DNA of 60,936 nt from an uncultured Candidatus Saccharibacteria bacterium (GCA_964597265.1 CAZQWJ010000001.1:1-60936); one strand, 5' to 3'. Positions 11,444 to 39,576 are shown, numbered from the stretch's first letter. Made by a program: numbers and translations. Notes: generated by a model not told the origin, from the sequence alone.

Positions 11444-11478
11444 TGCTCATTTGCTTACTAAATTTATACAATGCGCCT

Positions 11479-15912: not shown

Positions 15913-15928
15913 ACAAGCATGGTACAAA

Positions 15929-19488: not shown

Positions 19489-19497
19489 TAACAATCT

Positions 19498-21701: not shown

Positions 21702-22133
21702 ATGAGACACTCCTTTGCAATTTTTGTTCTGCTATTTGCTTTCTGTTCATTGACGCTTGTTGCTCCCATAACTGCGCAAGCTCAACGCCCGACACCGGAT
21801 GTAGTCTGTCGGACAGATCCAAGTGATCCCGACAGTGACCCTGACCCCAGCCAAACATACATCGCCATTATCAACGACTGTGTTAATGTAGAAAGTTTCT
21901 TAACGTTTCTACTCAACCTCTTTATAATTGCTGGTGTCTTAGCCGCTATATATCGGATCTCAATAGGCCTCTTTCTTATTAACACCGCCTTAGGTGATCC
22001 CACCAAATTACAAAACGGGCGAGAAGCACTCACAGAAGCTGTGGTAGGATTATTAATAGTAGTTGGCGCGTGGGCATTGATTCAGTTTATAGAATCTTTT
22101 GCACCCGCTAATTGGTTCCTAAACCTAGCGTAG
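21702..22133 (+). CDS. VirB2/TrbC-like T4SS pilin paralogue 1
   Basis: Signal peptide ending 'ITAQAQ', a Cys pair (VVCRTD...NDCVNV), and two TM helices separated by a short polar loop. The C-terminal helix 'EAVVGLLIVVGAWALIQFI' aligns with paralogue 3. Confidence 0.6.
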   Translation: MRHSFAIFVLLFAFCSLTLVAPITAQAQRPTPDVVCRTDPSDPDSDPDPSQTYIAIINDCVNVESFLTFLLNLFIIAGVLAAIYRISIGLFLINTALGDPTKLQNGREALTEAVVGLLIVVGAWALIQFIESFAPANWFLNLA

Positions 22134-22147
22134 AAACGTAACATAAT

Positions 22148-22465
22148 ATGACTGTAGATTGTGCAAATCCAGCTCCAGGTTATTCCGTCCTCTCATACCC
22201 CGAGTGTACGATGTATGTCATAGGGCAAATGATAGTCGCGATGATCTATGCTTTGATGATCGTCGGTGCAATAGTCACATTATTTTCGTTTTTCTATGCT
22301 GCATGGTTATACATATTTGCAGCGGACGATCGAGAAAAAACGCAGCGTTCTCGGAGTGCAATGGTATGGTCGGTTGTTGGACTGTTCGGTATTACTACAA
22401 TCTTTATTGTCTTCCGATTTGTTGTTGATATTGTTCCTAACCTCAATGCATTCATCCGTTTTTGA
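22148..22465 (+). CDS. VirB2/TrbC-like T4SS pilin paralogue 2 (no obvious signal peptide)
   Basis: 105 aa. A Cys pair (DCANP...PECTMY), two TM helices, and the loop 'ADDREKTQRSRSAMVWSVVGL', which parallels 'GDNEENTKKARSMITNAVIGL' of paralogue 3. Confidence 0.5.
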   Translation: MTVDCANPAPGYSVLSYPECTMYVIGQMIVAMIYALMIVGAIVTLFSFFYAAWLYIFAADDREKTQRSRSAMVWSVVGLFGITTIFIVFRFVVDIVPNLNAFIRF

Positions 22466-22519
22466 TCGAGGCTCTTGCGGAGGTTAGTACACTGTGCTAC
22501 GCTACTATACAGATAGACT

Positions 22520-22535
22520 TAGATCTTGAGATCTA
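22520..22535. promoter_or_regulatory. operator-like palindrome overlapping a putative promoter for pilin paralogue 3
   Basis: TAGATCT-TG-AGATCTA is a 7-bp inverted repeat. TTGAGA (22526-22531), a 17-nt spacer, then TAGAGT/TATATA. A strong SD (AAGGGGGTGGAG) lies 8-9 nt before the ATG at 22579. Confidence 0.35.
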
Positions 22536-22578
22536 CTTTCTTTTCAATTAGAGTATATAAAGGGGGTGGAGCAAAGTT

Positions 22579-22962
22579 ATGACAATCAATAAAGTTTCCA
22601 AATTCACCACACGACTTGCGTTGACCGCCATAATGTTGTTGGCCACAGCGCAATCGACATTCGCTCAAGCGGTCCCAACGATAGTATTGACTCCGCCTAG
22701 TGCTGGGTTTTCCGACTTCGGTTCATTAATCTCTACCGGTTTGACCATCATCTTTATCGTCGCCGGATTGGCAGTGTTGGTGTACTTATTTATAGGTGCT
22801 TTCACCTACTTGACTGCTGGAGACAATGAAGAGAACACTAAGAAAGCGCGTTCGATGATTACCAACGCCGTGATCGGTTTGATTATTTTGGCAGCAGCGT
22901 GGGCCCTATGGCAGTTAGTCATCAACCTCGTCCCTGGCTTAGCAGAATTGCTTGGTCAGTAA
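22579..22962 (+). CDS. VirB2/TrbC-like T4SS pilin paralogue 3 (candidate major pilin)
   Basis: Signal peptide 'LLATAQSTFAQA', two TM helices, the loop 'AGDNEENTKKARSM', and its own promoter and SD. Confidence 0.6.
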   Translation: MTINKVSKFTTRLALTAIMLLATAQSTFAQAVPTIVLTPPSAGFSDFGSLISTGLTIIFIVAGLAVLVYLFIGAFTYLTAGDNEENTKKARSMITNAVIGLIILAAAWALWQLVINLVPGLAELLGQ

Positions 22963-22990
22963 CCCGTAAGGGATAGGATGAAACGCAGAC

Positions 22991-25900
22991 ATGCTGAGTA
23001 GACTATATACGTGTTTCAAATCTATTGTCACAGCAATCGCCCCAATAAGCATGGGTGTGATTGGGTTAGCAATAGTCCAGATGACAACACCGCCGGTAGT
23101 TTTCGGACAGCAAACGGAAAACAACACGGCGGTGTTTTCTGGACAGGTTATCCCTGCATTTATCGGAACTGCATATGACCCTTCGGAAGCATACCAACGC
23201 CTTGCAGGGCTTCCTATCTATGTGTTTGCCTACGATAGTTGGACTGGCGGTAATTTCATCATTAACAACTTTGCTGTACGAACGCAGATCCGATTGGATG
23301 GATCGTTCCAAGCACAAGGGTTGCCACACGGTAACCACTATGGTGTTTATTTTCCTTTTCGTTTAGAGGGAGGCAGTGTCATTAGAACCGACTGCACCGA
23401 CCCTGCTGCAAGTCCTTGCGTAGGCAGTGTCACAGGAGAAAACGTTCAGTTTAGGATGCCTCAGCGAGGTGCTGTCGGCAACCCCGATCCTGACCTTATT
23501 AAGGACATTTTTTCCTACAACATGGGAGACCCGGGGGATATTGTTGTGAACACACAAATCTCGGGCGAAACAGTGCGTCTGGGGCCGAGTTTTCTTACCA
23601 GCGAAACACGAGTTGATATCGCAAATAATACAAACACCTTTCCTTTGGTTCCAACGAGTTCTATTAAAGTGACCGTGAAGGCACACGGGCACTTTCTGGA
23701 GAGTGGAACGTTCATCGATTCAAGTGCATATGAAATTGTTGCACAGCGTGTGGTCGAGGTAGGTGGAATTACTAATCGGCTTCCTGTTGAAGCCCCTCTA
23801 ATTAAAGGTCGAACGACATTTCCTCTGCAGGCTGCTCATGATAGCGATAATCCTCACAATAACGACAGGGTATTTCAGGCATATGCTCCACCAGGCGTGT
23901 ATGCTATTACTGCGTGGCGAGCGGACGGAGCAACAACGTATTCTAGCTATGCAGTTGGCGAATCTGTTAATTCGTCTCTTACAGGACTAGCCTTTTTATA
24001 TGTCCAAGGTGGTGATGATTGGTCACTATCACTCACGAGGCGACACCTTATGCCCTTACGAGTTAATCAGTTTACACTATGGGGAAGGGTACACACCTCA
24101 ACCGGTTTAGTTGTAAATCCAACAAGCCCTCAAATAAATATCAATATGAGAAACATAAATAATAGTTCCGTCCCTCCCGTCACCCATAGCCCCAAAATGC
24201 GGAACGAAAGTTGCGACATTCCTTTTTGGACATTTAATTACGACGGTCTTTTTGTTGGTGACACAGACTGTAACGATCGTGACAATAGCAACTTAGAGGA
24301 TAGCGACCCTGTTAACCAGGATCCTCAACATAGTTACGGGCTATTCGCATTGTATGAAAGCCAATCCGTTAATTTTACCAATATACGGACTAGCATTTTT
24401 GAGGCATATGTTGATACCACCGGATACGAAAGAAACACCGTTTCCACGCAACAAATTTTCAGCAAAGACGGACCTCAACGTATAGATCTGACGGTATCTC
24501 CGATTGATACATCTCAAGGCGGTATCTTGTTAGAAGCAACTCCCCCGATCTCTATTAATACAGGTCGGCCCTCCAACCCAAGTGGAACGCAGGTATTTTC
24601 TATCCGGCCAGTGGATGAGAATATTGTAATTCCCGCATCCGGCAAAACCTACACTGCCGATATGTTAGGACAAATCAAAATCCCTCATGCAGATCTGGTT
24701 CCGCGTGGGAGAGATTTTGCACCGTACGACCTGAAGCTACTTATAAAACATCCATATTCGGAACTGTTCACCGATTATGGATGTGAAGCTGATAGTTGTG
24801 CACTGACGTATACGGGAGAACTCTTGGCACCCGCCTCAATCACACTAGCCCAAAAAGGCTTCAAAGAGCCCGAACCGTATAAATTTTTGGGGCTAATACC
24901 TGCTGATTTCCTAATGCCCAACCCACCTACAGCACTTGCTAATGTAAGCGCTGATCACGCTCACATAGAAATCGCGTTTACTGGAGCAGACTATTACCAG
25001 AGCGTAGTATATCTTAACAACGCTGGACAGGTGATTGATTCTTTGGATGAAAGTACCGTAACTGGCATGTCTGGTAATTGGACACTCAATCTTCAATTAC
25101 CATATGTGGGTCCACGTACTTGTTCAGATGGAAGCGTTATGGCTATGGAAGCGTGCCGTAGAGATGTTGACACAATGAATACCTATACTGTCGTCGCAAC
25201 CGCAGACGAAACAGTGCTATCTAAGACATTTCGTGTTCAATATAATCCCGGTGAGGATGTTGCATATGCGACCGATCCTTCATGGACCTTTGATTTTACC
25301 AATGAGTGCGATCGGCTGGAAGCAGATCTCAAAGAACAACTTGAAGCTGAAAAACAATCAAAGAAGAGGCCCGTCCGAGGGCTTGATTTTGCCACTGACA
25401 TCCTACGTAATGGTCTCATTGACTTAGAATTCAGTATCCAAGAAATCCAGGATGTTCATCTACCCAGATTAGGCTGTAACGCGAGTCTGTCTGCCAGCAG
25501 GCTTGCAGCTTCAGGCCTTCAGACTCTCCAAAGCGCACTTATCATGGAACCCCTTACTGTTTCGATAGCCGTACTGAACACATGGGAGACCATCAGAGGC
25601 CTTGCAAACGTATTCTTTATCTTCATCCTGCTCATTATAGGTATAAATCAAATCCTAGGACTTGACCAAAAAACATGGACCGCTAACACCATGTTGCCAC
25701 AATTAATTGTGGGTATTATTCTTGCAAATGTCAGTCTTCTGCTGGTTCAGTTCGTCCTAGATGTTAACAATATCCTCACTGCATGGATTTTTTCCGTTAT
25801 CTTTGGCGTTCTACAGACGTCCGGTATATCTGCTAATGCTATTGCAGGAGTGGGATTGGTCGGAACATCAGCTGCAACGTTTTCGTTCTTAAGCTCTATT

Positions 25901-27208
25901 ATCTCCGGCGGAATAGCTGGTGCAATCACATCTATAGCAGGTACAGGTGGAACTATCCTGATTCCTATACTAGGTGCCATCATCGCTGGTGCATTTGTAA
26001 TTTTTGCATTGGTCATATCGATCTTAGCTACTCTCTACGGCAGATATTTGATTATCTGGATTCTTACTATGGTAGCGCCAATTATTTTCGCTATATCAGT
26101 ATTACCTTGGGGAAGAAGTATGCGCAATATGTGGTGGAAAACCGTAATTCCGATTAGTTCCATCCAAACCATTGTGGCAGTACTGCTTTCTATCGGCATA
26201 TTGCTCTTAAGCAAAGGGGTTGAAGCTGATGGGTTACTCAATCAAGCCGGTGTCTTCTTGATTGGTGGTGCAACACTATTTATGGCAACCAAGGCTCCCC
26301 AATTTGCCGTACAACTACTGGGTGCTGGTGGTATGGCTGGTGCAGCACTTGGAGCTCTCACTGCTGTTGGTTCCAAGCTCGGCGGCGTGACTCAAGCTGT
26401 TGGGCAAAAGGTATCCCACCCTCTTACTGCGGAAGGGATCGCTGAGAGGCAAGACAGAAAAGCAACACTTCAAGGGCTTGGCTCTTCTGTTACCAATACA
26501 CGCGCGGGTAGGATTGCCAACTTCTTCACCGGTGGCACGCTAGAAAGGTCTGCATATGCCAAACATGAAGCACGGGCCAAAATCGAGAGAAGGCAAAAAG
26601 AAATACAGTCCAAAGAGAAAGCAGCATTCAGCACTTCTGTCGCCCGCAAGAAGACAGATGAATATAAAGGCAATATCCAACAAAGATTGCAACAGCAGTT
26701 CGCCACCGAGGTCCGGCCTGAGCTAGAAATTCAAAGAGATTTGGGGATTACTGACCCTCGCCTACAAAACATCAAAGCAGGTGTAAATAGTTTCTTTAAT
26801 AACTCCGAAACAAAAATTACAGTACTCAACGACGCTGGCGATCCAGTTGCAATGACAGTCCCTGAGATGAAAGCTGAACTTGTACAAAAGTTAGACATTA
26901 GTGATGCAGCCAAACCTCAACTACTAGCTGCTCTGAACAAGGCAAGTGACTTGGATAATATCGCCAAGACTCTGGCAGATAACGGCTTCAGGGATCCCGA
27001 GCTAGCAAAAAACATTAAGAGGGAACTAATAAGACGAGCACACGTAAGTGACAAAGCAAACGTATATGCCTCAGGAGCACTAGGCAGCAGAGAGTTCTCC
27101 CTAAGGGGGAGCAGGAATCGTGCAGCAGAACGACAAGCGGAAAACACCCAAGCGGCTGCTCCGCAACAAGGTGGAGGCGGTGGTGGTGCCACCAGAGGTC
27201 AATCGTAA
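22991..27208 (+). CDS. giant VirB6/TrbL-like polytopic protein with about 850-aa extracytoplasmic N-domain and charged C-terminal tail
   Basis: An N-terminal anchor, a long beta-rich region, then about 8 TM helices (roughly aa 860-1130, e.g. 'RYLIIWILTMVAPIIFAISVLPW'). A Lys/Glu/Gln-rich tail ends in 'QQGGGGGGATRGQS'. Confidence 0.55.
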   Translation: MLSRLYTCFKSIVTAIAPISMGVIGLAIVQMTTPPVVFGQQTENNTAVFSGQVIPAFIGTAYDPSEAYQRLAGLPIYVFAYDSWTGGNFIINNFAVRTQIRLDGSFQAQGLPHGNHYGVYFPFRLEGGSVIRTDCTDPAASPCVGSVTGENVQFRMPQRGAVGNPDPDLIKDIFSYNMGDPGDIVVNTQISGETVRLGPSFLTSETRVDIANNTNTFPLVPTSSIKVTVKAHGHFLESGTFIDSSAYEIVAQRVVEVGGITNRLPVEAPLIKGRTTFPLQAAHDSDNPHNNDRVFQAYAPPGVYAITAWRADGATTYSSYAVGESVNSSLTGLAFLYVQGGDDWSLSLTRRHLMPLRVNQFTLWGRVHTSTGLVVNPTSPQININMRNINNSSVPPVTHSPKMRNESCDIPFWTFNYDGLFVGDTDCNDRDNSNLEDSDPVNQDPQHSYGLFALYESQSVNFTNIRTSIFEAYVDTTGYERNTVSTQQIFSKDGPQRIDLTVSPIDTSQGGILLEATPPISINTGRPSNPSGTQVFSIRPVDENIVIPASGKTYTADMLGQIKIPHADLVPRGRDFAPYDLKLLIKHPYSELFTDYGCEADSCALTYTGELLAPASITLAQKGFKEPEPYKFLGLIPADFLMPNPPTALANVSADHAHIEIAFTGADYYQSVVYLNNAGQVIDSLDESTVTGMSGNWTLNLQLPYVGPRTCSDGSVMAMEACRRDVDTMNTYTVVATADETVLSKTFRVQYNPGEDVAYATDPSWTFDFTNECDRLEADLKEQLEAEKQSKKRPVRGLDFATDILRNGLIDLEFSIQEIQDVHLPRLGCNASLSASRLAASGLQTLQSALIMEPLTVSIAVLNTWETIRGLANVFFIFILLIIGINQILGLDQKTWTANTMLPQLIVGIILANVSLLLVQFVLDVNNILTAWIFSVIFGVLQTSGISANAIAGVGLVGTSAATFSFLSSIISGGIAGAITSIAGTGGTILIPILGAIIAGAFVIFALVISILATLYGRYLIIWILTMVAPIIFAISVLPWGRSMRNMWWKTVIPISSIQTIVAVLLSIGILLLSKGVEADGLLNQAGVFLIGGATLFMATKAPQFAVQLLGAGGMAGAALGALTAVGSKLGGVTQAVGQKVSHPLTAEGIAERQDRKATLQGLGSSVTNTRAGRIANFFTGGTLERSAYAKHEARAKIERRQKEIQSKEKAAFSTSVARKKTDEYKGNIQQRLQQQFATEVRPELEIQRDLGITDPRLQNIKAGVNSFFNNSETKITVLNDAGDPVAMTVPEMKAELVQKLDISDAAKPQLLAALNKASDLDNIAKTLADNGFRDPELAKNIKRELIRRAHVSDKANVYASGALGSREFSLRGSRNRAAERQAENTQAAAPQQGGGGGGATRGQS

Positions 27209-27225
27209 GTATTCCACAGTACACT

Positions 27226-29388
27226 ATGCGTATGTTTGTTTCTCACTCCCCCAATAGAAAAAATCTCAACCTGCTGATCTTCATGCTTGTCATAGCGCTC
27301 ATGGTGCCACGAGCAAGCTATGCCAGTATATTTGATGGACTTGGTAGCGGCGGGAGCGGCATTTTTGGCGGCCTTGGTGAGCGAGTACAAACTATATTTG
27401 AAGGCCGCCGAGTGGATATAGGCGGTAGCACTGTACCGTTTATCCCAGACCCCCCTTCTCCACCGCAACCGGGTGATCCTCCGGCTCCAGGTGCAGGAGA
27501 GTTTGTTAAGGTATGGTTGGAATATGAATCATACTACCGAGGAACACAAGCACATGATATTGTGCAGGAGGATCCGCTAGAAAGCCTGCATAGAGAATAT
27601 ATTCAAGGTTCTGCCGAAGAACCAATGCACGGTTGTTGCGCATCCTGTGGAGAAGAAGTGCAAAACATTCAGCACTCTTTATGGGGCTGGTGTGGCGGAG
27701 AAGCTCAAACCCAAGGTATTCCAACTCCAGACGGAGCAGTCAGTTCGGTTCAAATATCTTCTCCAGGACCTAACGATAACACATTACCAGGTGCCGTCCC
27801 GAACAAATTTATTCGTAGAGATGGATATACATATGAGTGTGTGAAGACTGCCTGCTGGAGTGAAGAAATTCCCGGACCGACTCCCACTAGTTCCATAGAC
27901 CCAACCCCAACTCCTCAAGTTGTTTGGCACGAAGAACGCAGATACAACTATATGGAGTTTCAGACCATGATCTATCACAGTAACGACATCCTCCTCAGAG
28001 TTCATTATATGAATATCGGTGACGACGACATCCCGAAAGAACAAGTTAAAATTTATCGCTATGCGCGTGACGGCAAAGAATGGCCTCATAACCTTGATGC
28101 AATGGGCACTAACCCTCTTGCCGAATGTGCAGGTATTCCTTCATATGCAGGCTATGAAGTTGCGCCAATGACACATATGAATGCTCTTGATGCGCACGAA
28201 GAAAATATTTGTGGTCCACCCGGGGATGTTCTACCTCCTGGTGATTTGTCACAATCTACAGAACCACCAGCGGGTTCGTGCGATCAATTTTCTGATCGTT
28301 CTAGAAGAAACTCGATCCCTTCTGTTTCTCAAACATTCTCTCTGCTAGGTGGCAACACACCGCGAGACTTTAATTTTGTATGCGATCCCAACGATGGCGA
28401 GGAAGGAGAACGTTGTGGAAACAGGAGGCTCGTTCTTGAAGAGCGAGAACTAACCACCGAGGAATATTGTCGTCTGTTCTTTGAATTTAGAGATGTTACT
28501 AAAATCGGAGGGTGTGGGTATAACGCTTCATCCAACAACAGCATCCTGGGGCCCATAACCTACGAGGTTCGATATGGCGAAAATCAATCATCACGCTCTG
28601 TCGCAACGCTCTCAATTCCCATCGGCAACCCTGTTGATGACGAAGCTCGTCCTTTTGGGTGGCCTGCCACTGGACGTATCGCTGAAAACTGGGGCAACAC
28701 CGGCCAAGCACAAGCTCTCGCAAGTTACCGTAGCCTCGCAGACGGAAGATCCGAGTATGACGAATACCTGTTTTGTCCCGGCCAGGGCCAAACATATCCT
28801 CTCGATGGCCGCGCTCGTGCCGGAGACCAACTCCATCCTGGTATTGATATTGTTCCTGCATTTTCCTCAGCCAAACCACCCTTCGTATATACGACTCATG
28901 CTGGATGGGTGACATTTGCTGGAATAGATCCAAACTTTCCTGATAAAGGTCTCACTGTGCAGGTAGAAACCGACGTGAACCGTGACTGGATTCCTGACGT
29001 GGTCACACGTTACACACACTTACAGCCCGGATCTTTGACATTTGACGGGCAATATGGCTTAGACTCATCTTACTTTGCCAATCCGTATGCACCGACAGAT
29101 GGCCTGCCACATACGTTTGGTACTACTTTGTATGTTGCACGTAACACCCTCATTGGCTTAATGGGGGACACTGGATCTGATGGCGTCAGACAACTTCAAT
29201 ACGAGATACCATATACCAACCCTGAGCATGGTACGCCTCCCGCAAACGGAAACATCGGATCTGAGCGATGTTCAGATGATCCATACATGAGTAGCTGTGT
29301 GGTTGGAGATCAAAGTGAATCACAATTTTTCTATCGGTTACGATTTGAGCCGAATCTCGTTTTTGGCCCAACATACGTAAACCCGTAG
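27226..29388 (+). CDS. secreted Cys-rich protein with C-terminal M23 (LytM) domain lacking the HxH motif
   Basis: Signal peptide 'VPRASYAS'. 'LHPGIDIV' (HxxxD, 28834-28848) is present, but the 'PHLHFE' position reads 'RQLQYE' (Gln codons at 29191-29193 and 29197-29199). Confidence 0.65.
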   Translation: MRMFVSHSPNRKNLNLLIFMLVIALMVPRASYASIFDGLGSGGSGIFGGLGERVQTIFEGRRVDIGGSTVPFIPDPPSPPQPGDPPAPGAGEFVKVWLEYESYYRGTQAHDIVQEDPLESLHREYIQGSAEEPMHGCCASCGEEVQNIQHSLWGWCGGEAQTQGIPTPDGAVSSVQISSPGPNDNTLPGAVPNKFIRRDGYTYECVKTACWSEEIPGPTPTSSIDPTPTPQVVWHEERRYNYMEFQTMIYHSNDILLRVHYMNIGDDDIPKEQVKIYRYARDGKEWPHNLDAMGTNPLAECAGIPSYAGYEVAPMTHMNALDAHEENICGPPGDVLPPGDLSQSTEPPAGSCDQFSDRSRRNSIPSVSQTFSLLGGNTPRDFNFVCDPNDGEEGERCGNRRLVLEERELTTEEYCRLFFEFRDVTKIGGCGYNASSNNSILGPITYEVRYGENQSSRSVATLSIPIGNPVDDEARPFGWPATGRIAENWGNTGQAQALASYRSLADGRSEYDEYLFCPGQGQTYPLDGRARAGDQLHPGIDIVPAFSSAKPPFVYTTHAGWVTFAGIDPNFPDKGLTVQVETDVNRDWIPDVVTRYTHLQPGSLTFDGQYGLDSSYFANPYAPTDGLPHTFGTTLYVARNTLIGLMGDTGSDGVRQLQYEIPYTNPEHGTPPANGNIGSERCSDDPYMSSCVVGDQSESQFFYRLRFEPNLVFGPTYVNP

Positions 29389-29395
29389 CGACATT

Positions 29396-30409
29396 ATGGA
29401 CATTCACTCGCTCAAAGAGCGACTACGATACAATAAAAAACGCCTCGCTTTGTTGACACTAGGTATGGTATTGATAGTATCGATACTACTGGTAGTGAGC
29501 CGGCTGGATACACTATTGGTTACACCCATACCTCCGTCCCCTTCGCAGCGTGCTGACGTCACATCTGCACAACACCTAAAATTTGCAAATCCAGAGGATA
29601 CCGCTTATCCTTCGTCGTATTCTTTTGAAGATCCTATTATTGTTCCTGATACTATACGGGTTTACCGAATTCTGCCTGGGCCGGATGAACTATTTTCGAA
29701 TGCAAATCTTCCTGCAATGGCTAAAGCGTTTGGTTTTAATGTAGATGCACAGGTTACCTCTATTACACAAGGGTACATGTATTATCAGGAAGGAAATGAA
29801 CTTGCTATTATACCTACAAAAGGTTCTATTCGTTTCTCGTCTGACCTTACAACCTTGCCTCCTTTTAATATCCAGGATGCGGGAGCACAACCACATGTTA
29901 TAGACAGCGTGCGCTTGGTGCTTAGTAGAGCTAGACTTGATAATCCACTCATTAATTGGCAGGGCGCTGAGGTCAAAATGTATGAGCTGCGAAACAACAG
30001 CTTAGAGGAAGTATTTAGCCTTGGAGAGAAAACATTTTATCACGTTACTTTGCCACTTCGGCTAAACAATTTGCCCTTACTCAGTACGGAAAAACAATAT
30101 GTCCGTGTAGCTCCAAACGGAAACGTCCTTGGTGCATTTATCTGGTATCCAAATTTGGATATTTCTGGCGTAGAAGAATGGAAAATCATTGACTACTTGA
30201 GTGCAGTAGGGCGAGTCAGGAGTAATCAAGGTTTGTTTTGGGAATCAGATACTCGAGCGCTACATGAGCAGATTACATTTACGCAAACGGGATTAACATA
30301 TTTTTTGCCAAATGATTTTTTTAGCAACCCGACTGGTGAATTTCACATTTTGCCTGCGTATATGTTTACCAACAATGTAGACTCAGTAATCGTTTCTGCG
30401 TTGCCATAA
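29396..30409 (+). CDS. hypothetical membrane-anchored exported protein
   Basis: 337 aa with a single N-terminal TM (LALLTLGMVLIVSILLVV). No recognisable motif. It is embedded in the T4SS-like locus. Confidence 0.45.
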   Translation: MDIHSLKERLRYNKKRLALLTLGMVLIVSILLVVSRLDTLLVTPIPPSPSQRADVTSAQHLKFANPEDTAYPSSYSFEDPIIVPDTIRVYRILPGPDELFSNANLPAMAKAFGFNVDAQVTSITQGYMYYQEGNELAIIPTKGSIRFSSDLTTLPPFNIQDAGAQPHVIDSVRLVLSRARLDNPLINWQGAEVKMYELRNNSLEEVFSLGEKTFYHVTLPLRLNNLPLLSTEKQYVRVAPNGNVLGAFIWYPNLDISGVEEWKIIDYLSAVGRVRSNQGLFWESDTRALHEQITFTQTGLTYFLPNDFFSNPTGEFHILPAYMFTNNVDSVIVSALP

Positions 30410-30414
30410 TAACT

Positions 30415-33400: not shown

Positions 33401-33585
33401 CTGCTAGTACCAATGGTAGCTTTACTACGCCGGGACCGAACATCTGCGCTGTGCAGCTCTTATCTGACTGGGGAGCTAACGTCACACAAGGACCAGAAAT
33501 AATGTGTTGCAATCCGGATCTCCCTAATTTAAGTGGCTGCCAGCCAGCCCTGAATCAATCGACATGGACACCACCAATTCTTTAA
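30415..33585 (+). CDS. multidomain Cys-rich cell-wall hydrolase: GH-like region + SLT/lysozyme-like + two M23 peptidase domains
   Basis: An N-terminal TM. 'LTEIGWYE' and 'VGPNEPE' are GH-like. 'NPWLLMGMWATESAW' is the SLT motif, with the catalytic Glu codon at 32281. M23 number 1 has 'HFGQD' and 'THLHYEI'. M23 number 2 has 'HRPVD' and 'PPHIHL'. Gly/Pro linkers include 'PPGGGPGIPPPGGGGGG'. Confidence 0.75.
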   Translation: MQVTKNGQFIITVACIIAVIMLSRNELAIAPTPIAHAQQVPDVACIGNSVCQYLDGVMGDSRISSLQHLKFLSPVFNMTSPYFVDIVNTISQCSNYWEQLDGIAGNAYNFLNGPYIPDWVNTARNIPAIGSKPIVLTEIGWYELLQGSDRATALNNLTNSINWLKNPSNGVIGSMLFNVFNNNPGWSDYSMSDTEINTICSGSCDNIGANSAVYYSSSDASFYDPAGSHNMGWTIEIANNDTNPQLPSVMPGINSAHSRNITPVIRIGVMDSSGGFDTPAQYVNFLVTLNDLIAQNHQKDVYVIVGPNEPETECWASQQCFNGCSAGGGEQQASCALDDWPAVGPNVSAQNLVCACSGSTCAPWQPQTFNRPTNQDTGQADGTGQGFYQLFDYDVSLLLEIPPVLPYVSVGTPPGGGPGIPPPGGGGGGTCNPFNCFAPYVVDFATSLECAANSLRVEEPTWYWFDRYGPYCDNETRSLPFGYNFWVNFYDKYAPVGAAQRTCCNSSRNCSESPPGNPPRPQDVGMACPAQSDPLRQPGAEEFDYYRGALDTCGLTLAQQRWTTQNTLGLSIPELADHMYSLNMTYLGLSFNNVPRADVEAVLTKAQENNINPWLLMGMWATESAWSQTQSCQGGGGSVNGCLSCPVGFNNPGWDHCKVVTDPLYSGGTHFGQDFLGPQGSPVYATTGGIVETAGYIAGQGVGYMIRIAGNDGNAHVYFHLNLNVNDYVIAGDTVTAGQQIAEIGPVCLPSAVPGCDPKPTSTCASGCGNGLTNATHLHYEIYPPPNLSKPANCSLEPDPIDLLPPSCGGTCTGTGGGTPGGPGEGGSPPPPGTYGTGVGCSTTGYHPTGGSATNRFHWDGHRPVDLFAVDGAPAYAPYDGVSYPVDDLTGGYTIEFVPSDRCQPAMYYAHNRNSNRVSGNVTRGQQVGFVSNSGSACQPCTSQNCTTGEPGCSQPGRCRPGDTNCNLCNGSNGGRCYCNASANGQCSGPPHIHLAASTNGSFTTPGPNICAVQLLSDWGANVTQGPEIMCCNPDLPNLSGCQPALNQSTWTPPIL

Positions 33586-34679
33586 AGATAACAAAAAACA
33601 ATTTTCTACTCTTTCTGGGAGCACTTCTTATTCCAATAATCTTGGCGGTAGTATATATATCTTTCTCCTCGCTAAACGATCGTAGTTTCAAAAACATTGA
33701 TACGAGTGATGGACCAGCTATAGTGCAAGCACAAAAGTTTACGACTGGTGCCGTAGAATATCCTCAAGTGTTTTTTAACCCTCAAAACAGTGCTTCATTA
33801 CTCGTATACATCAATTCCCTGGAGCATCATATCGAGGTCAATGATGGTTTCAGAACAGGGAAAATTCGTCCTGAAGGGTTTTATTGGGTAAACGAAATAT
33901 CATGGGGACCTCATAATCTGGCTATCATAAGTACTGGACAGGTAGAAGCAGACAAGTCTGACTATCTTGTCAATTCCGCAGCACTTGGAAGCAGCAGGCC
34001 ATTCAATTACGAAAAACTTCCCTTTTTCGGAGAGAACTACACATGGTCCCACGACGGAAAACGAGTGGCGTTCTTTGGAAACATAGACTATGGCAAAGGA
34101 ACAGCACACATTCTGATATATACGTTTGCAACGCAACAACAAGAACAAATCGAAGATATTATAATTCAAGGCCCTACCGAATTGTTATGGCTACAGGATA
34201 ATAGCTTTATTGTGTATGAACTGCCTGATGGGCGTGACTTGGAGGATCCGACAATTATCACGTTATTCCGAGTTTCTCAAAACAGTGAAGGTGCTTGGGT
34301 GAAAGAGCCATATGCTGGAACATATGCCCCTCCCAAAATCAGTCATGACAGAACAACAATTGCATATCCAGCAGTTACTTCTTATGTTATTCACAACATG
34401 GTCAACGATATACGATACGAGGTGCTTGATCTCGATTTGGTTGCACCTCATTTTGTTTATGACTTTGTCGATAATAGCACCATTAGTTTTGTGTATCAGA
34501 GCGACAATTCCTTTTACCTGCTGCTGTATGATTTTACAAAACATCAAGGCACCAGTTTCAAACTGGACTTTCTATCTGCACCACAGCTGAAAATCCAAAC
34601 GATTACTGTTCAGGATGATAAAAAGATATTGCTTCGTTTTAGTAATGACGAACTCTACGCCATCACGCCACCTCTTTAG
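33564..34679 (+). CDS. hypothetical membrane-anchored protein, possible beta-propeller (PD40/TolB-like repeats)
   Basis: N-terminal TM (FLLFLGALLIPIILAVVYISF). 'WSHDGKRVAFFG' and 'ISHDRTTIAYP' resemble PD40 repeats. Confidence 0.45.
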   Translation: MDTTNSLKITKNNFLLFLGALLIPIILAVVYISFSSLNDRSFKNIDTSDGPAIVQAQKFTTGAVEYPQVFFNPQNSASLLVYINSLEHHIEVNDGFRTGKIRPEGFYWVNEISWGPHNLAIISTGQVEADKSDYLVNSAALGSSRPFNYEKLPFFGENYTWSHDGKRVAFFGNIDYGKGTAHILIYTFATQQQEQIEDIIIQGPTELLWLQDNSFIVYELPDGRDLEDPTIITLFRVSQNSEGAWVKEPYAGTYAPPKISHDRTTIAYPAVTSYVIHNMVNDIRYEVLDLDLVAPHFVYDFVDNSTISFVYQSDNSFYLLLYDFTKHQGTSFKLDFLSAPQLKIQTITVQDDKKILLRFSNDELYAITPPL

Positions 34680-34758
34680 ACAGATACTGTGTTTCTATCG
34701 ACAGATCTTCTTTCCTTAGCAGCATTCATAATCTATACTTATAGATAATCGAGTTCAT

Positions 34759-35295
34759 ATGCCTTTTACGCATAAGATTCCGCAAAATGTAACACAGTAC
34801 GAAAGCCGTATCGTTGGCAACTTTACCTCTCGCCAATTTATTTATTTGGCAGCTGGAGGCATTATTATTATGCTCTTTTTCATGCTGCCGTTTCCGCCTC
34901 TCGTTGGAATCATCGTAGCATTGGTGGTCCTACCTGTAACGCTCCTGTTGGCACTCATTAGTTTTGATGGTCGAAGAAGTGATATTTGGATCATCAATTT
35001 TGTGAATGCTGTTGCCGAACCCACGCAACGGATATGGGAAAAGGACGAAGTGCCACCACAAGTGCTTTTACCATCGTATGTTGTCCCTCACCACACAACG
35101 GAAAAAAGGCAAAAAACTGGTACCGATTTGGAGGAGTTTTTGGGTTTTTGGCGTGCCAATGAAGCAAAAAGCGACTATTCTTCAGAGGAACAGGCATTTC
35201 TTAACCGCATAGCCATGATGAGTCGATATTATGAAAGTGCTACCCAGGAACAATCGTCTCTGACAACAGAGCACAGCGACCAAACCGAACCATGA
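34759..35295 (+). CDS. PrgI-family (VirB3-like) T4SS membrane protein
   Basis: 'IPQNVTQYESRIVGNFTSRQFIYLAAGGIIIMLFF' followed by a second TM. This is the typical PrgI N-terminal pattern, and the gene lies upstream of VirB4. Confidence 0.6.
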   Translation: MPFTHKIPQNVTQYESRIVGNFTSRQFIYLAAGGIIIMLFFMLPFPPLVGIIVALVVLPVTLLLALISFDGRRSDIWIINFVNAVAEPTQRIWEKDEVPPQVLLPSYVVPHHTTEKRQKTGTDLEEFLGFWRANEAKSDYSSEEQAFLNRIAMMSRYYESATQEQSSLTTEHSDQTEP

Positions 35296-36602
35296 GAGAT
35301 TTAGCTACTAATAACAACAATCGAGCCATTTTTTCTCTTCCCGGAACCATTGTTTCGGCATCTCCGGTGCAAAAGATTGCCAATCAACGGGCAAATCGTC
35401 AATTGTCGCGTGCCGCGCTTTCACCTTCTGTTACGCCGATTTGGCGTCAACAAATATTTGCCCCATCTGCTGAACTGCAACGTCGCTTTACACCCCAAAA
35501 CGACATACCCAATGCAGCAACTGCTACTCCCCAATTATCGACCGAAGCCGAAGGCACAGCCAAACCACCTGCGCCACTCGCCCCGCAGCCGGCGGCAGTG
35601 CCAGATCAGCAATCACTACCCGATGACAGAAAGCAACAACCTACCCCATCCACAGCGCCAGATACCAAACCCGCTGCTAATGCACCACAACCCGTGCCCT
35701 CTACCAAACCAAAGCCAGCTTCCCCTACTCTGCCGCAGGATAAACCGCAACAACCGCCACCATCGCAACCCTCCCCTCCTGCCTCTGATTCTCATGAAAC
35801 AAACGCAGAGCTAAGCAAGTCTCTGGATGCTATCACGCATATACGGCAACAAATCCAATCACAAGAGCAAAAATTAAAACAGCTTGAGCAGCAAACACCC
35901 CAAGGACAACAAGAAGACATTGATACTGAGCAAAAAACAAAGGAAGCGCTTGTAAAAAACCTTGATCAAGCCATACAAAACACGCAAACGGAGCTACAAA
36001 CATACGCGGCTATGCCTGGAGCCAATACGACCATATTGGACGGGCTCAAAAAACAATTCAGGCAGCAAAAAGAATTATTCAACCGGTTAGTGCACGAAAG
36101 AGATTTGCTTGCCAAAAAGAAAGAGGCACTCAAGGAAAAAGCGCTCGAAGAGCAAAAAGCAAAAAAACAACTCGACTCCCTGCAACAACAGCATGAGCAG
36201 CTTGCACAGCAGTATCCGGTAGCTTCCTCACAAGCTGCGGCATCACCATCATCACCTCCTCCAACAGCTGCCTCTGCTCCACGACCAGCTCCGACTCAAG
36301 CGCCGACAAAAGTTGTTATGCCTGCAATCACCAAACAACCCAATGCAATCAACGGTATAGTTCAAAATGCGCAGGGGAAAATGATAACCGAGGCCATTGT
36401 TATCATCAAAGCGGCTGACCAGCGCCCCCTTAGGGCACTTAAGACCAACGAGCTTGGACAGTTCTGGATTACGACCGCCTTAGAAAACGGCGACTATGAG
36501 ATTCAGACAGAAAAAGACGATTTGAGCTTTGGTACAATAAAAATACATCTTGATGGATCGGTGGTCGAACCAATTCTTATCAAAGAACAGGCTGCATCGT
36601 GA
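35292..36602 (+). CDS. Pro/Gln-rich coiled-coil protein with C-terminal carboxypeptidase-regulatory-like beta domain
   Basis: A low-complexity PxxP tract (PPAPLAPQPAAVPDQQ...), a Q/E/K heptad region, and a C-terminal 'INGIVQNAQGKMITEAIVIIK...GDYEIQ'. No TM is seen. Confidence 0.45.
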   Translation: MRDLATNNNNRAIFSLPGTIVSASPVQKIANQRANRQLSRAALSPSVTPIWRQQIFAPSAELQRRFTPQNDIPNAATATPQLSTEAEGTAKPPAPLAPQPAAVPDQQSLPDDRKQQPTPSTAPDTKPAANAPQPVPSTKPKPASPTLPQDKPQQPPPSQPSPPASDSHETNAELSKSLDAITHIRQQIQSQEQKLKQLEQQTPQGQQEDIDTEQKTKEALVKNLDQAIQNTQTELQTYAAMPGANTTILDGLKKQFRQQKELFNRLVHERDLLAKKKEALKEKALEEQKAKKQLDSLQQQHEQLAQQYPVASSQAAASPSSPPPTAASAPRPAPTQAPTKVVMPAITKQPNAINGIVQNAQGKMITEAIVIIKAADQRPLRALKTNELGQFWITTALENGDYEIQTEKDDLSFGTIKIHLDGSVVEPILIKEQAAS

Positions 36603-37294
36603 CTATGGCTGGATTTATAGGGAGCACTCAAAATCATCTCGACATCATTGATATAAAAGATGATGTACTCGTACTCAAAGGAGGACGCTATCGTATTGTT
36701 CTGGAAGCACAGGCAATCAACTTTGACCTTTTGTCAGAGGCCGAACAGGATGCCGCGATTTACTCCTATGCCAACCTTGTTAACTCGTTGGATTTTCCGA
36801 TGCAAGTAGTGATCCGAACCAGGCAAGTTGATATTACCGAGTACATTGCGTATCTGCAGGGGTATAGCAAATTACAACCCACTGCAACGCTTAGGCAGCA
36901 ACTCGAAAACTACATCAAATTTGTACGCGAATTGGTATCAGAAAATACCGTACTGTACAAGAGGTTTTACGTTGTCATCCCACACACCAGCAAAGTCGCA
37001 GAACAATCCCAGAGTTTCCTCGACCCTTTTTTCAAGATCTTTGGCAAACAAGAACGTGTCAATTTGGAGTACTCTGCGAAACAACTGGAGGAGGCCAAGA
37101 AAGTTTTTACACAACGCACCCAAGAGCTCGCATGGCAGTTTCGTCGGCTAGGTATCGGTATCAGACAGCTCAATACAGAGGAACTTATCCGCTTGTTTTA
37201 TGATATTTATAACCCGGAAACAGGACAAAATGACGGCTTACAGACCGATCTTATGGGCTACACCAGCACCATTATCAAACCAAGTGTAGCTTAG
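36599..37294 (+). CDS. stand-alone protein resembling the N-terminal domain of VirB4/TrbE
   Basis: 'IIDIKDDVLVLKGGRYRIVLEAQAINFDLLSEAEQDAAIYSYANLVNSLDFPMQVVI' parallels the N-domain pattern of Gram-positive VirB4 proteins. No P-loop is present. Confidence 0.45.
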   Translation: MTMAGFIGSTQNHLDIIDIKDDVLVLKGGRYRIVLEAQAINFDLLSEAEQDAAIYSYANLVNSLDFPMQVVIRTRQVDITEYIAYLQGYSKLQPTATLRQQLENYIKFVRELVSENTVLYKRFYVVIPHTSKVAEQSQSFLDPFFKIFGKQERVNLEYSAKQLEEAKKVFTQRTQELAWQFRRLGIGIRQLNTEELIRLFYDIYNPETGQNDGLQTDLMGYTSTIIKPSVA

Positions 37295-37302
37295 AACGTA
37301 TT

Positions 37303-39576
37303 ATGGCAAATCCGTTGCAGGGTCTACAAAAATTAATTAACAAACTCCTGCCGCTCCCATCAACTGCGGCTCAACCGGCAAACACCGGAGGCGCAACAGT
37401 GTCAGAGGAAGAAAAAGCTAAGCAAGAAGCAGAGAATGCAGAGGCAACAAAAAAAGCCGAGCAGTTTGCGCAGGGTATGCTCACTATCCGCGACCTGATC
37501 GCTCCTTCTGGCATGGAGCATGATTTCGGCTTTCTGAGGATTGGCCAGACATACTACCGGACGTTTTTTATCGCTGGGTACAGACGAGAAGTAGGAGCCA
37601 ACTGGTTATCACCGCTCATTAACTTTCCGCATGCCTTGGATATTGCCATGTTTTACTATCCCGTTGATGCACGGGAAGTACTAAACAACTTACGCCGGAA
37701 AGTTACCGAGATGGAGGCCGAACTCAACATTGAACAGCAACAGGGGCGCATTCTCGATCCAAGCGTTCAACTAGCCCTACAGGACGCACGCGCCTTGCAA
37801 GAAGATCTCGTAGCCGAACGGGAACGCTTTTTTCAATTTGGCCTTTATATAACCATTCCTGCAGAATCTCAAGAAGAGCTTAACCTCATTACCAAACAGC
37901 TCGAATCTGTCCTGGGATCAGCTACGCTCGTATCACGAAAAACTACTCTCCAGATGGAGGATGGTTTTCGATCGACATTGCCGTTTTTCCTGGACAAGAT
38001 TCAAGTGTACCGAAACATGGATACCACCTCGATTGCGACGACATTTCCATTTACGTCATCTAGTTTGACGTCTGATCGGGGGATCTTGTATGGCATTAAC
38101 GAACACAATGCCAGTTTGATTATCTTTGATCGATTCAGTCTTCCCAATGCCAACATGGTAGTATTTGCCAAATCAGGATCCGGTAAAAGCTATTTTGTAA
38201 AACTAGAAGCATTGCGGTCGTTAATGTTAGGTACGGAAGTCATTATTATTGACCCTGAAAATGAATACAAGACTATGGCAGAAGCCATCGGTGGCGAGTA
38301 TATTGCGCTTGATTTTAATTCATCATCAAAACTTAACCCATTTGATCTATCGCAGGTATACGAAGAAGGTGAAGATGAATTGGGCTTAAAGATCCTGACC
38401 CTGCACTCCATGATGAAGGTCATGCTGGGGGACATGAATCCTTCTGAAGAAGCAATCTTAGATCGCGCCCTTTTAGAAACATACCGACTCAAAGGGATTA
38501 CTCAGGATCCTGAAACCCAAAAACTCGACCCGCCGCTTTTGGAAGATCTGTACAAAGTTCTACTGGGAATGGAAGAAGCTGAGGCAAAAAATATTTCGGA
38601 TCGGCTGCAAAAATTTGTCGTTGGGTCTGCCAAAGGACTTTTTGACCAGCAGACCAATGTCGATATTCACAATACGTTTACGGTTTTTGGGATCAGGGAT
38701 CTGGAAGAAAGCGTGCGGCCAATTGGCATGTTCGCCGTGCTTGACTATATTTGGACGCGGGTACGCAGAGATCGCCGCAAGCGGATCCTGATTGTTGACG
38801 AGGCGTGGTTTATGATGAAGCACCCGGACAGTGCAAACTTTCTCCACAGTATTGCCAAGCGCGGACGTAAATATTACCTGGGTCTTACCACTATTACTCA
38901 AGACGTGGAAGATTTTTTGAATACAGACAAAGGCCGTGCTGTTGTAACCAACGCATCTATCCAAGTATTGTTTAAGCAATCTGTTTCCGCCATTAATCAT
39001 TTGACTGAGGTATTCTTCCTTTCCGAAGGGGAGCGAAATCTACTCATGTCTGCCAATGTGGGCGAAGGGCTATTTTTTGCCGGAGAAGCACACGTCGCCA
39101 TGCAGGTAATCGCCTCTCAGGACGAGCACGAAATCATTACCACCAATCCTGCGGAACTGGAAGCTATTGAACGGGCAAAGCAGTTGCAAGAAGTCGAGGT
39201 CGTTACAGAAGAGATTGGCGGGGAGCAAGAGGCAGCTGCATATGATTTTGGTACATCGGTTGACCAAGCACTACAAGAAGAAGCGCCTTCTGAGTCCGAG
39301 GCCAGCGGGGTGATAGAGTTTCAGCAACAGCCAGCAGAAGAACCACAACCACCCGCCCAGGAAACCGAGGAACCCTCTGCACAGGAGATCATCGCTCAGG
39401 CAATGAGCGAAGTGGAGGACTCTCAGTCGCAAGCAGAGATACCCGACACGTTGACCACTGAGATGCTTGATGAAAATCTCACGCAAACACCGCAAGAAAC
39501 TAGTGGGCAAGTAGATACTGAAGAGCAACCAGAAGGGGTCGTCCCAGAGGATGGCGCTACCACGTCATCGAGCTAA
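37303..39576 (+). CDS. virB4: VirB4/TrbE-family T4SS ATPase with acidic C-terminal extension
   Basis: N-domain 'TIRDLIAPSGMEHDFGFLRIGQTYYRTFFIAGY'. Walker A 'FAKSGSGKSYF' and Walker B 'RILIVDEAWFMM'. A C-terminal tail of about 140 aa is rich in Glu/Gln/Pro. Confidence 0.85.
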   Translation: MANPLQGLQKLINKLLPLPSTAAQPANTGGATVSEEEKAKQEAENAEATKKAEQFAQGMLTIRDLIAPSGMEHDFGFLRIGQTYYRTFFIAGYRREVGANWLSPLINFPHALDIAMFYYPVDAREVLNNLRRKVTEMEAELNIEQQQGRILDPSVQLALQDARALQEDLVAERERFFQFGLYITIPAESQEELNLITKQLESVLGSATLVSRKTTLQMEDGFRSTLPFFLDKIQVYRNMDTTSIATTFPFTSSSLTSDRGILYGINEHNASLIIFDRFSLPNANMVVFAKSGSGKSYFVKLEALRSLMLGTEVIIIDPENEYKTMAEAIGGEYIALDFNSSSKLNPFDLSQVYEEGEDELGLKILTLHSMMKVMLGDMNPSEEAILDRALLETYRLKGITQDPETQKLDPPLLEDLYKVLLGMEEAEAKNISDRLQKFVVGSAKGLFDQQTNVDIHNTFTVFGIRDLEESVRPIGMFAVLDYIWTRVRRDRRKRILIVDEAWFMMKHPDSANFLHSIAKRGRKYYLGLTTITQDVEDFLNTDKGRAVVTNASIQVLFKQSVSAINHLTEVFFLSEGERNLLMSANVGEGLFFAGEAHVAMQVIASQDEHEIITTNPAELEAIERAKQLQEVEVVTEEIGGEQEAAAYDFGTSVDQALQEEAPSESEASGVIEFQQQPAEEPQPPAQETEEPSAQEIIAQAMSEVEDSQSQAEIPDTLTTEMLDENLTQTPQETSGQVDTEEQPEGVVPEDGATTSSS

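Follow-up and report, generated by a model that had tools for sequence, protein, structure and literature searches.

This report concerns a type IV secretion system (T4SS) locus at positions 21702-39576 of a 60,936-nucleotide stretch of DNA from an uncultured bacterium catalogued as Candidatus Saccharibacteria (GCA_964597265.1 CAZQWJ010000001.1:1-60936); the whole stretch, hereafter the window, was analysed. The locus consists of 12 co-oriented open reading frames (ORFs) on the forward strand, all of them intact, which either overlap or lie 5-113 nt apart (Table 1). A first-pass annotation made from the sequence alone had described it as a minimal monoderm-type T4SS-like locus, and here we set the results of profile searches, structure prediction and comparison with related loci against that description.

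Table 1 Genes of the T4SS locus, followed by features of its flanks. Positions are counted from the first base of the window; aa, amino acids; TM, transmembrane.
Feature	Position	Strand	Size	Description and supporting matches
VirB2-like pilin 1	21702..22133	+	143 aa	Signal peptide and two TM helices; PF18895 24.5 bits, E 2.9e-5, below cut-off
VirB2-like pilin 2	22148..22465	+	105 aa	Leader not obvious; two TM helices; PF18895 21.4 bits, E 2.7e-4, below cut-off
VirB2-like pilin 3	22579..22962	+	127 aa	PF18895 (T4SS_pilin) 38.2 bits, E 1.6e-9, above cut-off
Extended VirB6	22991..27208	+	1405 aa	N-terminal anchor, predicted extracellular beta-sandwich stack of ~720 aa, polytopic VirB6-type helical bundle, long charged C-terminal tail
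Exported Cys-containing protein	27226..29388	+	720 aa	N-terminal TM helix; degenerate M23/LytM-like C-terminal domain, PF01551 E 0.03
Bitopic membrane protein	29396..30409	+	337 aa	N-terminal TM helix; YycH/YpeB-like (PepSY-type) ectodomain by AlphaFold2 and Foldseek
Exported Cys-rich (49 Cys) hydrolase	30415..33585	+	1056 aa	Two intact M23 endopeptidase domains; PF01551 1.1e-20 in two stretches
Bitopic protein	33564..34679	+	371 aa	N-terminal TM helix; TolB-like beta-propeller candidate; sole match, a weak one, to NCBIfam TolB over residues 160-223 (E 3.5e-4)
PrgI/VirB3-like membrane protein	34759..35295	+		PF12666 43.3 bits, cut-off 27
PrgI partner candidate	35292..36602	+	436 aa	P/Q-rich disordered region, coiled coil, C-terminal Ig-like CarboxypepD_reg domain
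TrsD/TraC-like protein	36599..37294	+	231 aa	Equivalent of a detached VirB4 N-terminal domain; NCBIfam TrsD 1.3e-8
VirB4 ATPase	37303..39576	+		MPF_FATA/CD1110 type, acidic low-complexity tail; NCBIfam NF045971 392 bits, cut-off 325
PEGA + SH3 exported protein	40683-42266	-	527 aa	Between recF and dnaN, also there in related loci L001 and L002
ComF-family gene (comFC)	5025-5744	opposite to locus		Zinc ribbon and PRTase (Pfam)
tmRNA and SmpB	5796-6207 and 6301-6747	-		Tag peptide AITQTFDNIATAFAVPAFA; comFC directly downstream
Pilin-side flank				Two tRNA-Ser genes, SpoIID-like protein, amine oxidase, then a series of GT-C glycosyltransferases with DUF2298
VirB4-side flank				recF, PEGA/SH3 protein, dnaN, dnaA, rnpA, yidC, jag
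VirB4-side flank, past jag				Polysaccharide genes, ribosomal protein L25, class-I tRNA synthetase, CTP synthase, TsaD

The locus ends with its VirB4 ATPase, which exceeds the cut-off of the CD1110 family, matches the Pfam families P-loop_TraG, AAA_10 and CagE_TrbE_VirB, and has the C-terminal domain of Thermoanaerobacter VirB4 as its best Protein Data Bank (PDB) match (4AG5, 3.3e-49); in PHROGs it matched only a P-loop/terminase family. Its Walker A motif, at residue 289, is the sole one in the locus. The 231-aa protein encoded immediately upstream, which also has a precomputed match to the TraC-like family PF26593, matches the CD1110 VirB4 profile over positions 12-133 (6e-9), and the VirB4 ORF covers positions 172-735; given this complementary coverage, the two proteins jointly correspond to one full-length VirB4 of the CD1110 type. 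The split between TrsD and VirB4 is kept upstream of VirB4 in four other loci (L001-L004) and, weakly, in a further one (L006).

The start of the 436-aa ORF overlaps the stop codon of the PrgI/VirB3-like gene. The C-terminal domain of this protein matches PF13620 at an E-value of 1.7e-5 (3.3e-7 for the orthologue in the related locus L011), and both a signal peptide and a TM helix are absent from it. In a distant Patescibacteria relative (L003, 8256-9161), PrgI and a CarboxypepD_reg-type Ig-like domain form a single ORF of 301 aa, and because the two are fused there we regard the 436-aa protein as functionally tied to PrgI, which it probably partners on the cytoplasmic side of the membrane.

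At the other end of the locus, the three pilin-like proteins share a two-TM hairpin and can be aligned with one another, in agreement with their matches to PF18895 (cut-off 26.6 bits), a family also matched by the orthologous pilin array of L011. The second is the weakest of the three and was left uncalled by gene callers on Logan contigs. The 1405-aa protein that follows has no direct Pfam match of its own, and its assignment to VirB6 comes through its relatives: three of its 21 homologues match TrbL/VirB6 (PF04610), one of them, P0013, above the cut-off (26.9 bits against 25.9) over a region corresponding to residues 940-1101 of the protein in the window, where TM helices span residues 871-1073. 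An AlphaFold2 model (AF2; predicted local distance difference test, pLDDT, 70) places a helical bundle in this TrbL-matching part, for which Foldseek returned TrwI/VirB6 of R388 (probability ~0.7) and TrbL predictions in BFVD (~0.9); the low TM-scores of these fold matches we put down to the multi-domain model. The N-terminal 720 residues, which hold most of the invariant residues of the family, were modelled as a string of beta-sandwich domains, with Foldseek matches to a B. anthracis TIE protein (6e-9), streptococcal T-antigen, BcpA pilins and an archaeal S-layer protein. By these predicted folds the N-terminal domain consists of adhesin-like beta-sandwiches.

The nearest homologues of VirB4, at 52-75% identity, come from metagenome-assembled genomes (MAGs) labelled WWE3, Patescibacteria and Dojkabacteria, and outside the candidate phyla radiation (CPR) identity drops to 26%, in a Clostridium MAG. 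The VirB6-like protein likewise has its closest relatives in MAGs labelled WWE3, Patescibacteria or Dojkabacteria. Because the closest relatives of both proteins carry these labels, the genome is that of a WWE3-like member of the Patescibacteria (CPR).

Four ORFs between VirB6 and PrgI form a block that seems largely concerned with the cell wall. The enzyme at its centre, the 1056-aa exported protein, has two complete M23 motif pairs (HxxxD at residues 670 and 862, HxH at 777 and 992) and PDB matches to LytM and lysostaphin (2e-8), and it is the predicted functional analogue of VirB1. In its L011 orthologue a GH5 cellulase domain (PF00150) replaces the first part of the protein; alignment with the protein from the window was confined to the surroundings of an NEP motif (E 0.86), which is preceded by a TEIGW motif. 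A possible reading of the N-terminal third (30415-31400) is a glycosidase domain that has diverged or been permuted. A lysozyme/SLT-like 'WATES' or 'ATES' motif near residue 610, seen by eye, received no profile support and was discarded. The 720-aa protein, which BLASTP could not relate to the 1056-aa hydrolase, has an HxxxD motif at residue 537 and HxH nowhere along its length, and its M23-like domain (E 0.016 against PF01551 in the L011 orthologue) is probably non-catalytic.

Between these two M23-type proteins lies the gene for the 337-aa bitopic protein. Its AF2 model (pLDDT 85.7, from a 21-sequence alignment) matched YycH (9a5d_B, 1.4e-6, probability 1.0) and the C-terminal PepSY domain of YpeB (5boi, 1.6e-3), and its orthologue in L011 has a weak match to PF14620 (YpeB). 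The alignment was taken from an exhaustive search, which found ~25 homologues among 1.8 billion representatives; a word-index search with the profile of this protein gave only 3 proteins. YycH and YpeB both act in the control of peptidoglycan hydrolases. Given the predicted fold, together with the position between two M23-type proteins, we infer that the 337-aa protein may regulate or chaperone the adjacent hydrolases. We also considered it as a VirB8/TcpC-like component and rejected this, as the confident AF2 model matches YycH/YpeB and no VirB8 or NTF2 structure was among its top 50 matches. Residues 269-327 of the protein recur 16 times in an otherwise unrelated homologue of 1402 aa (P0032) and five times in another of 757 aa (P0043); by this repetition, its last ~60 residues appear to be a mobile repeat module. 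The remaining member of the block, the 371-aa protein, is conserved in L002 and L011 and is possibly, on weak sequence grounds, a TolB-like beta-propeller; PD40-like motifs can be seen in it by eye.

PDB sequence searches with the 337-, 371-, 231-, 436-, 720- and 1405-aa proteins and with the 21-sequence profile of the 337-aa protein gave nothing significant, and PHROGs gave nothing for those ORFs that had been called unrecognisable. Taken together, these results confirm the parts list of the first-pass annotation, with three VirB2/TrbC-like pilins, a VirB6-like channel protein, a PrgI/VirB3-like protein and a VirB4 ATPase all present where it placed them. It had further listed peptidoglycan hydrolases, for which the dual-M23 protein stands and the 720-aa protein is at best a degenerate M23, and five ORFs without a recognisable family, of which one is TrsD by sequence and the other four (the 337-, 371- and 436-aa proteins and the N-terminal domain of VirB6) have received assignments at the level of fold or weak profile matches. 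None of these ORFs resembles a coupling ATPase or relaxase, and none of the 'hypothetical' ORFs became a VirD4 or relaxase homologue through the profile searches and structure prediction that the annotation had suggested. The term 'minimal' does not fit the locus, and several of the supposedly unknown ORFs can be recognised.

Among the sizeable ORFs of the 61-kb window, none matched a Pfam or NCBIfam profile for VirD4/TcpA, VirB11, a relaxase, an integrase or a recombinase; the CD1115 VirD4 model gave only 11.6 bits, on VirB4 itself. Among flanking direct repeats sought as att-like sites (9000-46000), only chance-level pairs and paralogous glycosyltransferase repeats were present. No VirB8/NTF2-like protein was found in the locus, where the 337-aa protein was assessed by fold and the 371-aa protein by sequence searches only. 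The window therefore lacks what would mark a conjugative T4SS or integrative and conjugative element (ICE) of the monoderm mating-pair formation class MPF_FATA, namely a relaxase with a coupling ATPase (VirD4 or TcpA/FtsK-like), an integrase with att sites or foreign composition, and, as far as the fold of the 337-aa protein and the sequence searches show, a bitopic VirB8-like protein (PrgL/TraM/TcpC). It likewise lacks matches to the VirB5, VirB7-VirB11 and VirD4 of MPF_T (type IVA VirB/D4) systems, for which the VirB4 profile TIGR00929 (VirB4_CagE) scored 124 bits against a cut-off of 643. The earlier statements that the locus has no second P-loop ATPase and no relaxase, integrase or att-like ends are in keeping with these results; the statement that it has no coupling protein holds for the window and should be limited to it, since in most Patescibacteria a VirD4-like gene lies far from virB4 (PMC12102498).

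That last point raises the scenario in which the locus still serves conjugation, with the genes for its relaxase and coupling protein at other sites in the genome, of which 61 kb was inspected here: genes for type IV coupling proteins (T4CPs) are often distant from virB4, and a VirD4 homologue exists in most Patescibacteria genomes (PMC12102498). Relaxases, however, were detected in no more than 103 of the 3,035 Patescibacteria genomes surveyed, seldom in the vicinity of virB4 (PMC12102498), and a position by the replication origin with neither integrase nor att sites leaves no mobile unit to transfer. We consider this scenario highly improbable.

The setting of the locus points in the same direction. 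The whole 60.9-kb window is a housekeeping region surrounding the chromosomal replication origin, and the stop codon of virB4 lies 2.7 kb from dnaN and 4.2 kb from dnaA. In the spacer between these two genes (43409-43738), three DnaA-box-like sites (43563, 43612 and 43664) are grouped in 110 bp, one of them the sole perfect copy of TTATCCACA in the window; the spacer is likely oriC, ~4 kb from the end of virB4. GC content is flat, at 0.45-0.48, over the locus and both flanks. The neighbourhood of tmRNA, SmpB and comFC is ordinary and confirms the housekeeping context. A promoter and terminator scan of the sequence returned the same counts as shuffled sequence, and operon boundaries could not be assigned from it.

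Gene order is also conserved, in relatives at 40-75% amino-acid identity. A relative (contig CAYMOT010000001 and its Logan copies; L002 and L011) has the same order at 29-73% amino-acid identity: SpoIID, amine oxidase, GT-C genes, DUF2298, three pilins, a large VirB6, a 762-aa protein, a 321-aa protein, the hydrolase, a 353-aa protein, PrgI, a 419-aa protein, a TraC-like protein, VirB4, recF, PEGA/SH3, dnaN and dnaA. The distant loci L003 and L004 retain PrgI-TrsD-VirB4 and have exchanged accessory genes, as exemplified in L003 by a membrane protein ending in NlpC/P60. Four runs in the Sequence Read Archive (SRA) hold the locus of the window at 99.94-99.99% identity, which is too little strain variation for analysis; contigs with these genes occur in SRR9016294, SRR9016297, SRR9016298 and SRR31189356. 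The pattern of conservation fits a vertically inherited core locus and not a mobile island. With the position near oriC, native GC content, conserved order and absence of relaxase, T4CP, integrase and att sites, we concur with the first-pass annotation that the evidence argues against a conjugative element and for a chromosomal apparatus, fixed in place, with contact, pilus or translocation functions; published work on this kind of system has come to the same view (PMC10633639, PMC12102498).

One may postulate instead that the locus is a decayed or domesticated ICE remnant, without relaxase, T4CP or integrase and either non-functional or being lost, as its VirB4, TrsD and PrgI are of the MPF_FATA type found on ICEs and plasmids and genes for DNA processing are absent. 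There is very little to recommend this scenario, given that 12 of 12 ORFs are intact and tightly packed in an order conserved at 29-73% protein identity, that composition is native and the position near oriC is common even to Saccharimonadia, that four SRA samples carry the locus nearly unchanged, and that the homologous system of Southlakia epibionticum is essential.

Systems of this kind have been described before. Wang et al. 2023 (Cell, PMC10633639) showed by transposon sequencing that the T4SS of the Saccharibacterium S. epibionticum ML1 (SEML1_0006-0019) is essential for epibiotic growth, a requirement known only for this species; the system is like those of Gram-positive conjugative elements, includes an essential array of predicted pilins, and has no recognisable coupling or relaxase proteins. 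The fitness test in a cultivable relative that the first-pass annotation had proposed has therefore already been done (PMC10633639). Gene order there runs recF, SEML1_0004, PEGA protein, lysozyme-like protein, SEML1_0007, VirB4, SEML1_0009, PrgI, SEML1_0011, NTF2-like protein, VirB6, six pilins, Hsp20, comFC and tRNA-Ser, and comFC is non-essential (PMC10633639). In the survey of Quinonero-Coronel et al. 2025, VirB4 was present in 2,417 of 3,035 Patescibacteria genomes and formed a clade nested in MPF_FATA, with TrsD, PrgI/VirB3, VirB6 and VirB2 arrays near virB4, the locus often close to dnaA/dnaN, and T4CP homologues mostly far from virB4 (PMC12102498). A 2025 review states that the T4SSs of Patescibacteria are required for growth and may elaborate pili (PMC12857230), and a 2024 perspective calls their role completely unknown while raising both effector delivery and ComB-like uptake (PMC11665869).

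Our locus has the traits of this Patescibacteria type, with VirB4 affinity (judged by homologue identities and the CD1110 profile score), a pilin array, PrgI, TrsD and VirB6 adjoining virB4, neither relaxase nor T4CP in the cluster, and a chromosomal position near dnaA/dnaN. With S. epibionticum and the survey it shares VirB4, a small TrsD-like protein, PrgI, a large VirB6, an array of divergent VirB2-type pilins, large exported wall hydrolases inside a cluster devoid of relaxase and T4CP, a place beside recF/dnaN/dnaA, and a PEGA-domain protein, comFC and tRNA-Ser nearby. It differs from S. epibionticum in having three pilins co-oriented with VirB6, whereas there six are divergent from it, and M23 endopeptidases (with a possible glycosidase part) in place of lysozyme-like/phage-tail-lysozyme proteins. 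The NTF2/VirB8-like protein of S. epibionticum has no counterpart that we found, and the locus adds the YycH/YpeB-like, degenerate M23 and possible TolB-like proteins. Its VirB6 also carries the large N-terminal ectodomain, the C-terminal extension of PrgI is a separate ORF, and a GT-C glycosyltransferase array lies directly upstream. What the locus adds to the published picture is a WWE3-like member with lineage-specific accessory genes.

Likeness to the conjugative MPF_FATA systems of monoderms (C. difficile CTn2 CD1110, TrsD of pGO1, PrgI/PrgJ/PrgH of pCF10) extends to a VirB4 above the CD1110 cut-off, homologues of TrsD and PrgI, an architecture devoid of the VirB7, VirB9 and VirB10 core, and a wall hydrolase in the locus. 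Unlike those systems, the locus is chromosomal, apparently vertically inherited by synteny, and without relaxase, T4CP, integrase or oriT context; its hydrolase is of the M23 type and not SLT + CHAP or NlpC/P60, and it has VirB2-type pilins, which to our knowledge Gram-positive conjugative systems lack.

A further comparison is with the Ced system of Crenarchaeota and ComB of H. pylori, both T4SS-derived, free of relaxase and coupling protein, and equipped with VirB2-, VirB6- and VirB4-like parts. This parallel in composition invites the alternative that the locus encodes a Ced/ComB-like import machine that takes up host DNA or other macromolecules as nutrients, which would explain why neither a coupling protein nor a relaxase is needed. 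VirB4 does have a weak match to CedB (2.9e-12), Patescibacteria lack nucleotide synthesis and their T4SS has been named as a candidate uptake route (PMC11665869), and the association of comFC and tRNA-Ser with the locus is ancient. The CedB match, however, reaches only 46 bits against a cut-off of 700, compared with 392 bits for CD1110, and CedD reaches 23.7 against 600; by these scores the locus falls short of a Ced system, which is defined by a CedB-type ATPase and CedA/A1/A2. Nor does the locus have VirB8, VirB9 or VirB10 family matches, and the VirB7, VirB9 and VirB10 equivalents of a ComB-type core (ComB7, ComB9 and ComB10), as well as ComB8, are absent. In S. epibionticum, competence depends on ComEC and type IV pili are also linked to it, yet cells survive deletion of comEC and the T4SS is essential (PMC12857230); canonical transformation is therefore not what makes the system indispensable. 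The first-pass annotation had correctly placed a comFC gene in the window and had pointed to ComB-type DNA uptake; that link is weak, as 16 kb and unrelated genes separate comFC from the locus, the two are on opposite strands, and comFC is dispensable in S. epibionticum. Because the T4SS of that organism has the same recF, PEGA, comFC and tRNA-Ser neighbours, we read the proximity of comFC as old synteny and not as a functional clue. Import of this kind is possible, in our estimation, and on present evidence unlikely.

We hold the same degree of doubt toward export of protein effectors into a host bacterium, in the manner of the antibacterial T4SSs of Xanthomonas and Stenotrophomonas or of S. 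suis 89K. This is the default speculation for Saccharibacteria (PMC10633639; PMC11665869), and the cell-wall hydrolases encoded within the locus could be seen in its light. These hydrolases, however, have N-terminal signal or TM segments and are thus Sec substrates and not T4SS cargo, and no effector/immunity gene pairs are visible. The VirD4-type coupling protein that such export normally needs is missing from the window, and the distal VirD4 homologue of S. epibionticum is non-essential (PMC12102498).

Considering all of this, we judge it very probable that the locus encodes a chromosomal T4SS descended from monoderm (MPF_FATA) conjugation machinery that no longer serves conjugation. Several points weigh against this interpretation, which should accordingly be made with some caution: two of the three pilins score under the Pfam cut-off; the identity of VirB6 depends on the Pfam match of one homologue together with moderate fold matches; the roles of the 720-, 337-, 371- and 436-aa proteins are deduced from fold or weak profile matches and position; a VirB8-like component was not found in the locus; the absence of relaxase and VirD4 covers the 61-kb window, and in most Patescibacteria a T4CP homologue is encoded at a distance (PMC12102498); and function is carried over, by analogy, from Saccharimonadia and not from this lineage.

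In the mechanism that we propose, VirB4 with TrsD, PrgI (with its 436-aa partner) and VirB6 would form a translocon in the cytoplasmic membrane that would extract VirB2-type pilins and polymerise them into a pilus or conduit. The ~720-aa adhesin-like ectodomain of VirB6 would span the cell's own wall or contact and hold a partner cell, and the Sec-exported dual-M23 enzyme would cut peptidoglycan cross-bridges, whether the cell's own, the host's or both, letting the structure pass, with the degenerate M23 protein and the YycH/YpeB-like protein restraining or positioning it. The machine would work without a dedicated coupling protein or relaxase, and because these are lacking its job would be contact-dependent exchange with a host bacterium and not plasmid transfer. 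As to what is exchanged, a pilus-based conduit for uptake or exchange seems to us a nearly even prospect, protein export a reasonable possibility, and a role in adhesion only rather unlikely. VirB4-dependent pilus assembly in classical systems needs no VirD4, and the same is true of Ced/ComB uptake; when cytoplasmic effectors are exported, VirD4 is usually required. It is for this reason that we lean slightly toward the uptake or exchange conduit.

Two features of the flanks may belong with this machine. Directly upstream, an array at 11347-21696 on the forward strand comprises an amine oxidase, a 482-aa membrane protein whose counterpart in the relative is MptA_B-like, three paralogous GT-C glycosyltransferases of the PMT/PMT_2 families, and DUF2298; it stops 5 nt ahead of the first pilin gene, and the arrangement is identical in L011. 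This array may be a module for glycosylation of surface proteins or pilins that is co-transcribed with the T4SS. On the other side, the PEGA/SH3 protein may belong functionally with the T4SS or with a cell-surface module, because the PEGA-domain protein of S. epibionticum, SEML1_0005, adjoins the T4SS and was scored essential (PMC10633639). Within the PEGA/SH3 coding sequence there is a perfect 19-bp inverted repeat (40860-40878 and 40902-40920, with a 23-nt spacer); none is expected in shuffled sequence, and the counterparts of this gene in L001 and L002 lack it.

A more far-reaching combination of these elements would be a tube for feeding that breaches the wall of the host, in which an adhesin-stalked VirB6 and a VirB2-type pilus, a dual-M23 enzyme restrained by a YycH-like and a dead-M23 partner, and a surface glycosylated by the GT-C enzymes together import host macromolecules without a coupling protein. 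We regard this as improbable; if true, it would represent a bacterial T4SS that works in the reverse direction, as an organ essential for nutrient uptake.

Four concrete leads come from the locus. First, VirB6 is fused to an adhesin-like ectodomain, and surveys had not turned up adhesins. Second, the active hydrolase is flanked by the YycH/YpeB-like protein and by a predicted catalytically dead M23 protein, which suggests regulated cutting of the wall. Third, a PrgI partner domain is split off here and fused to PrgI in other lineages, and fourth, a GT-C glycosyltransferase array is conserved upstream. These leads are incremental and leave the overall picture in the literature unchanged. They bear on a system, the T4SS of Patescibacteria, that is among the few machines known to be essential to the epibiotic lifestyle of this very large and mostly uncultured radiation.

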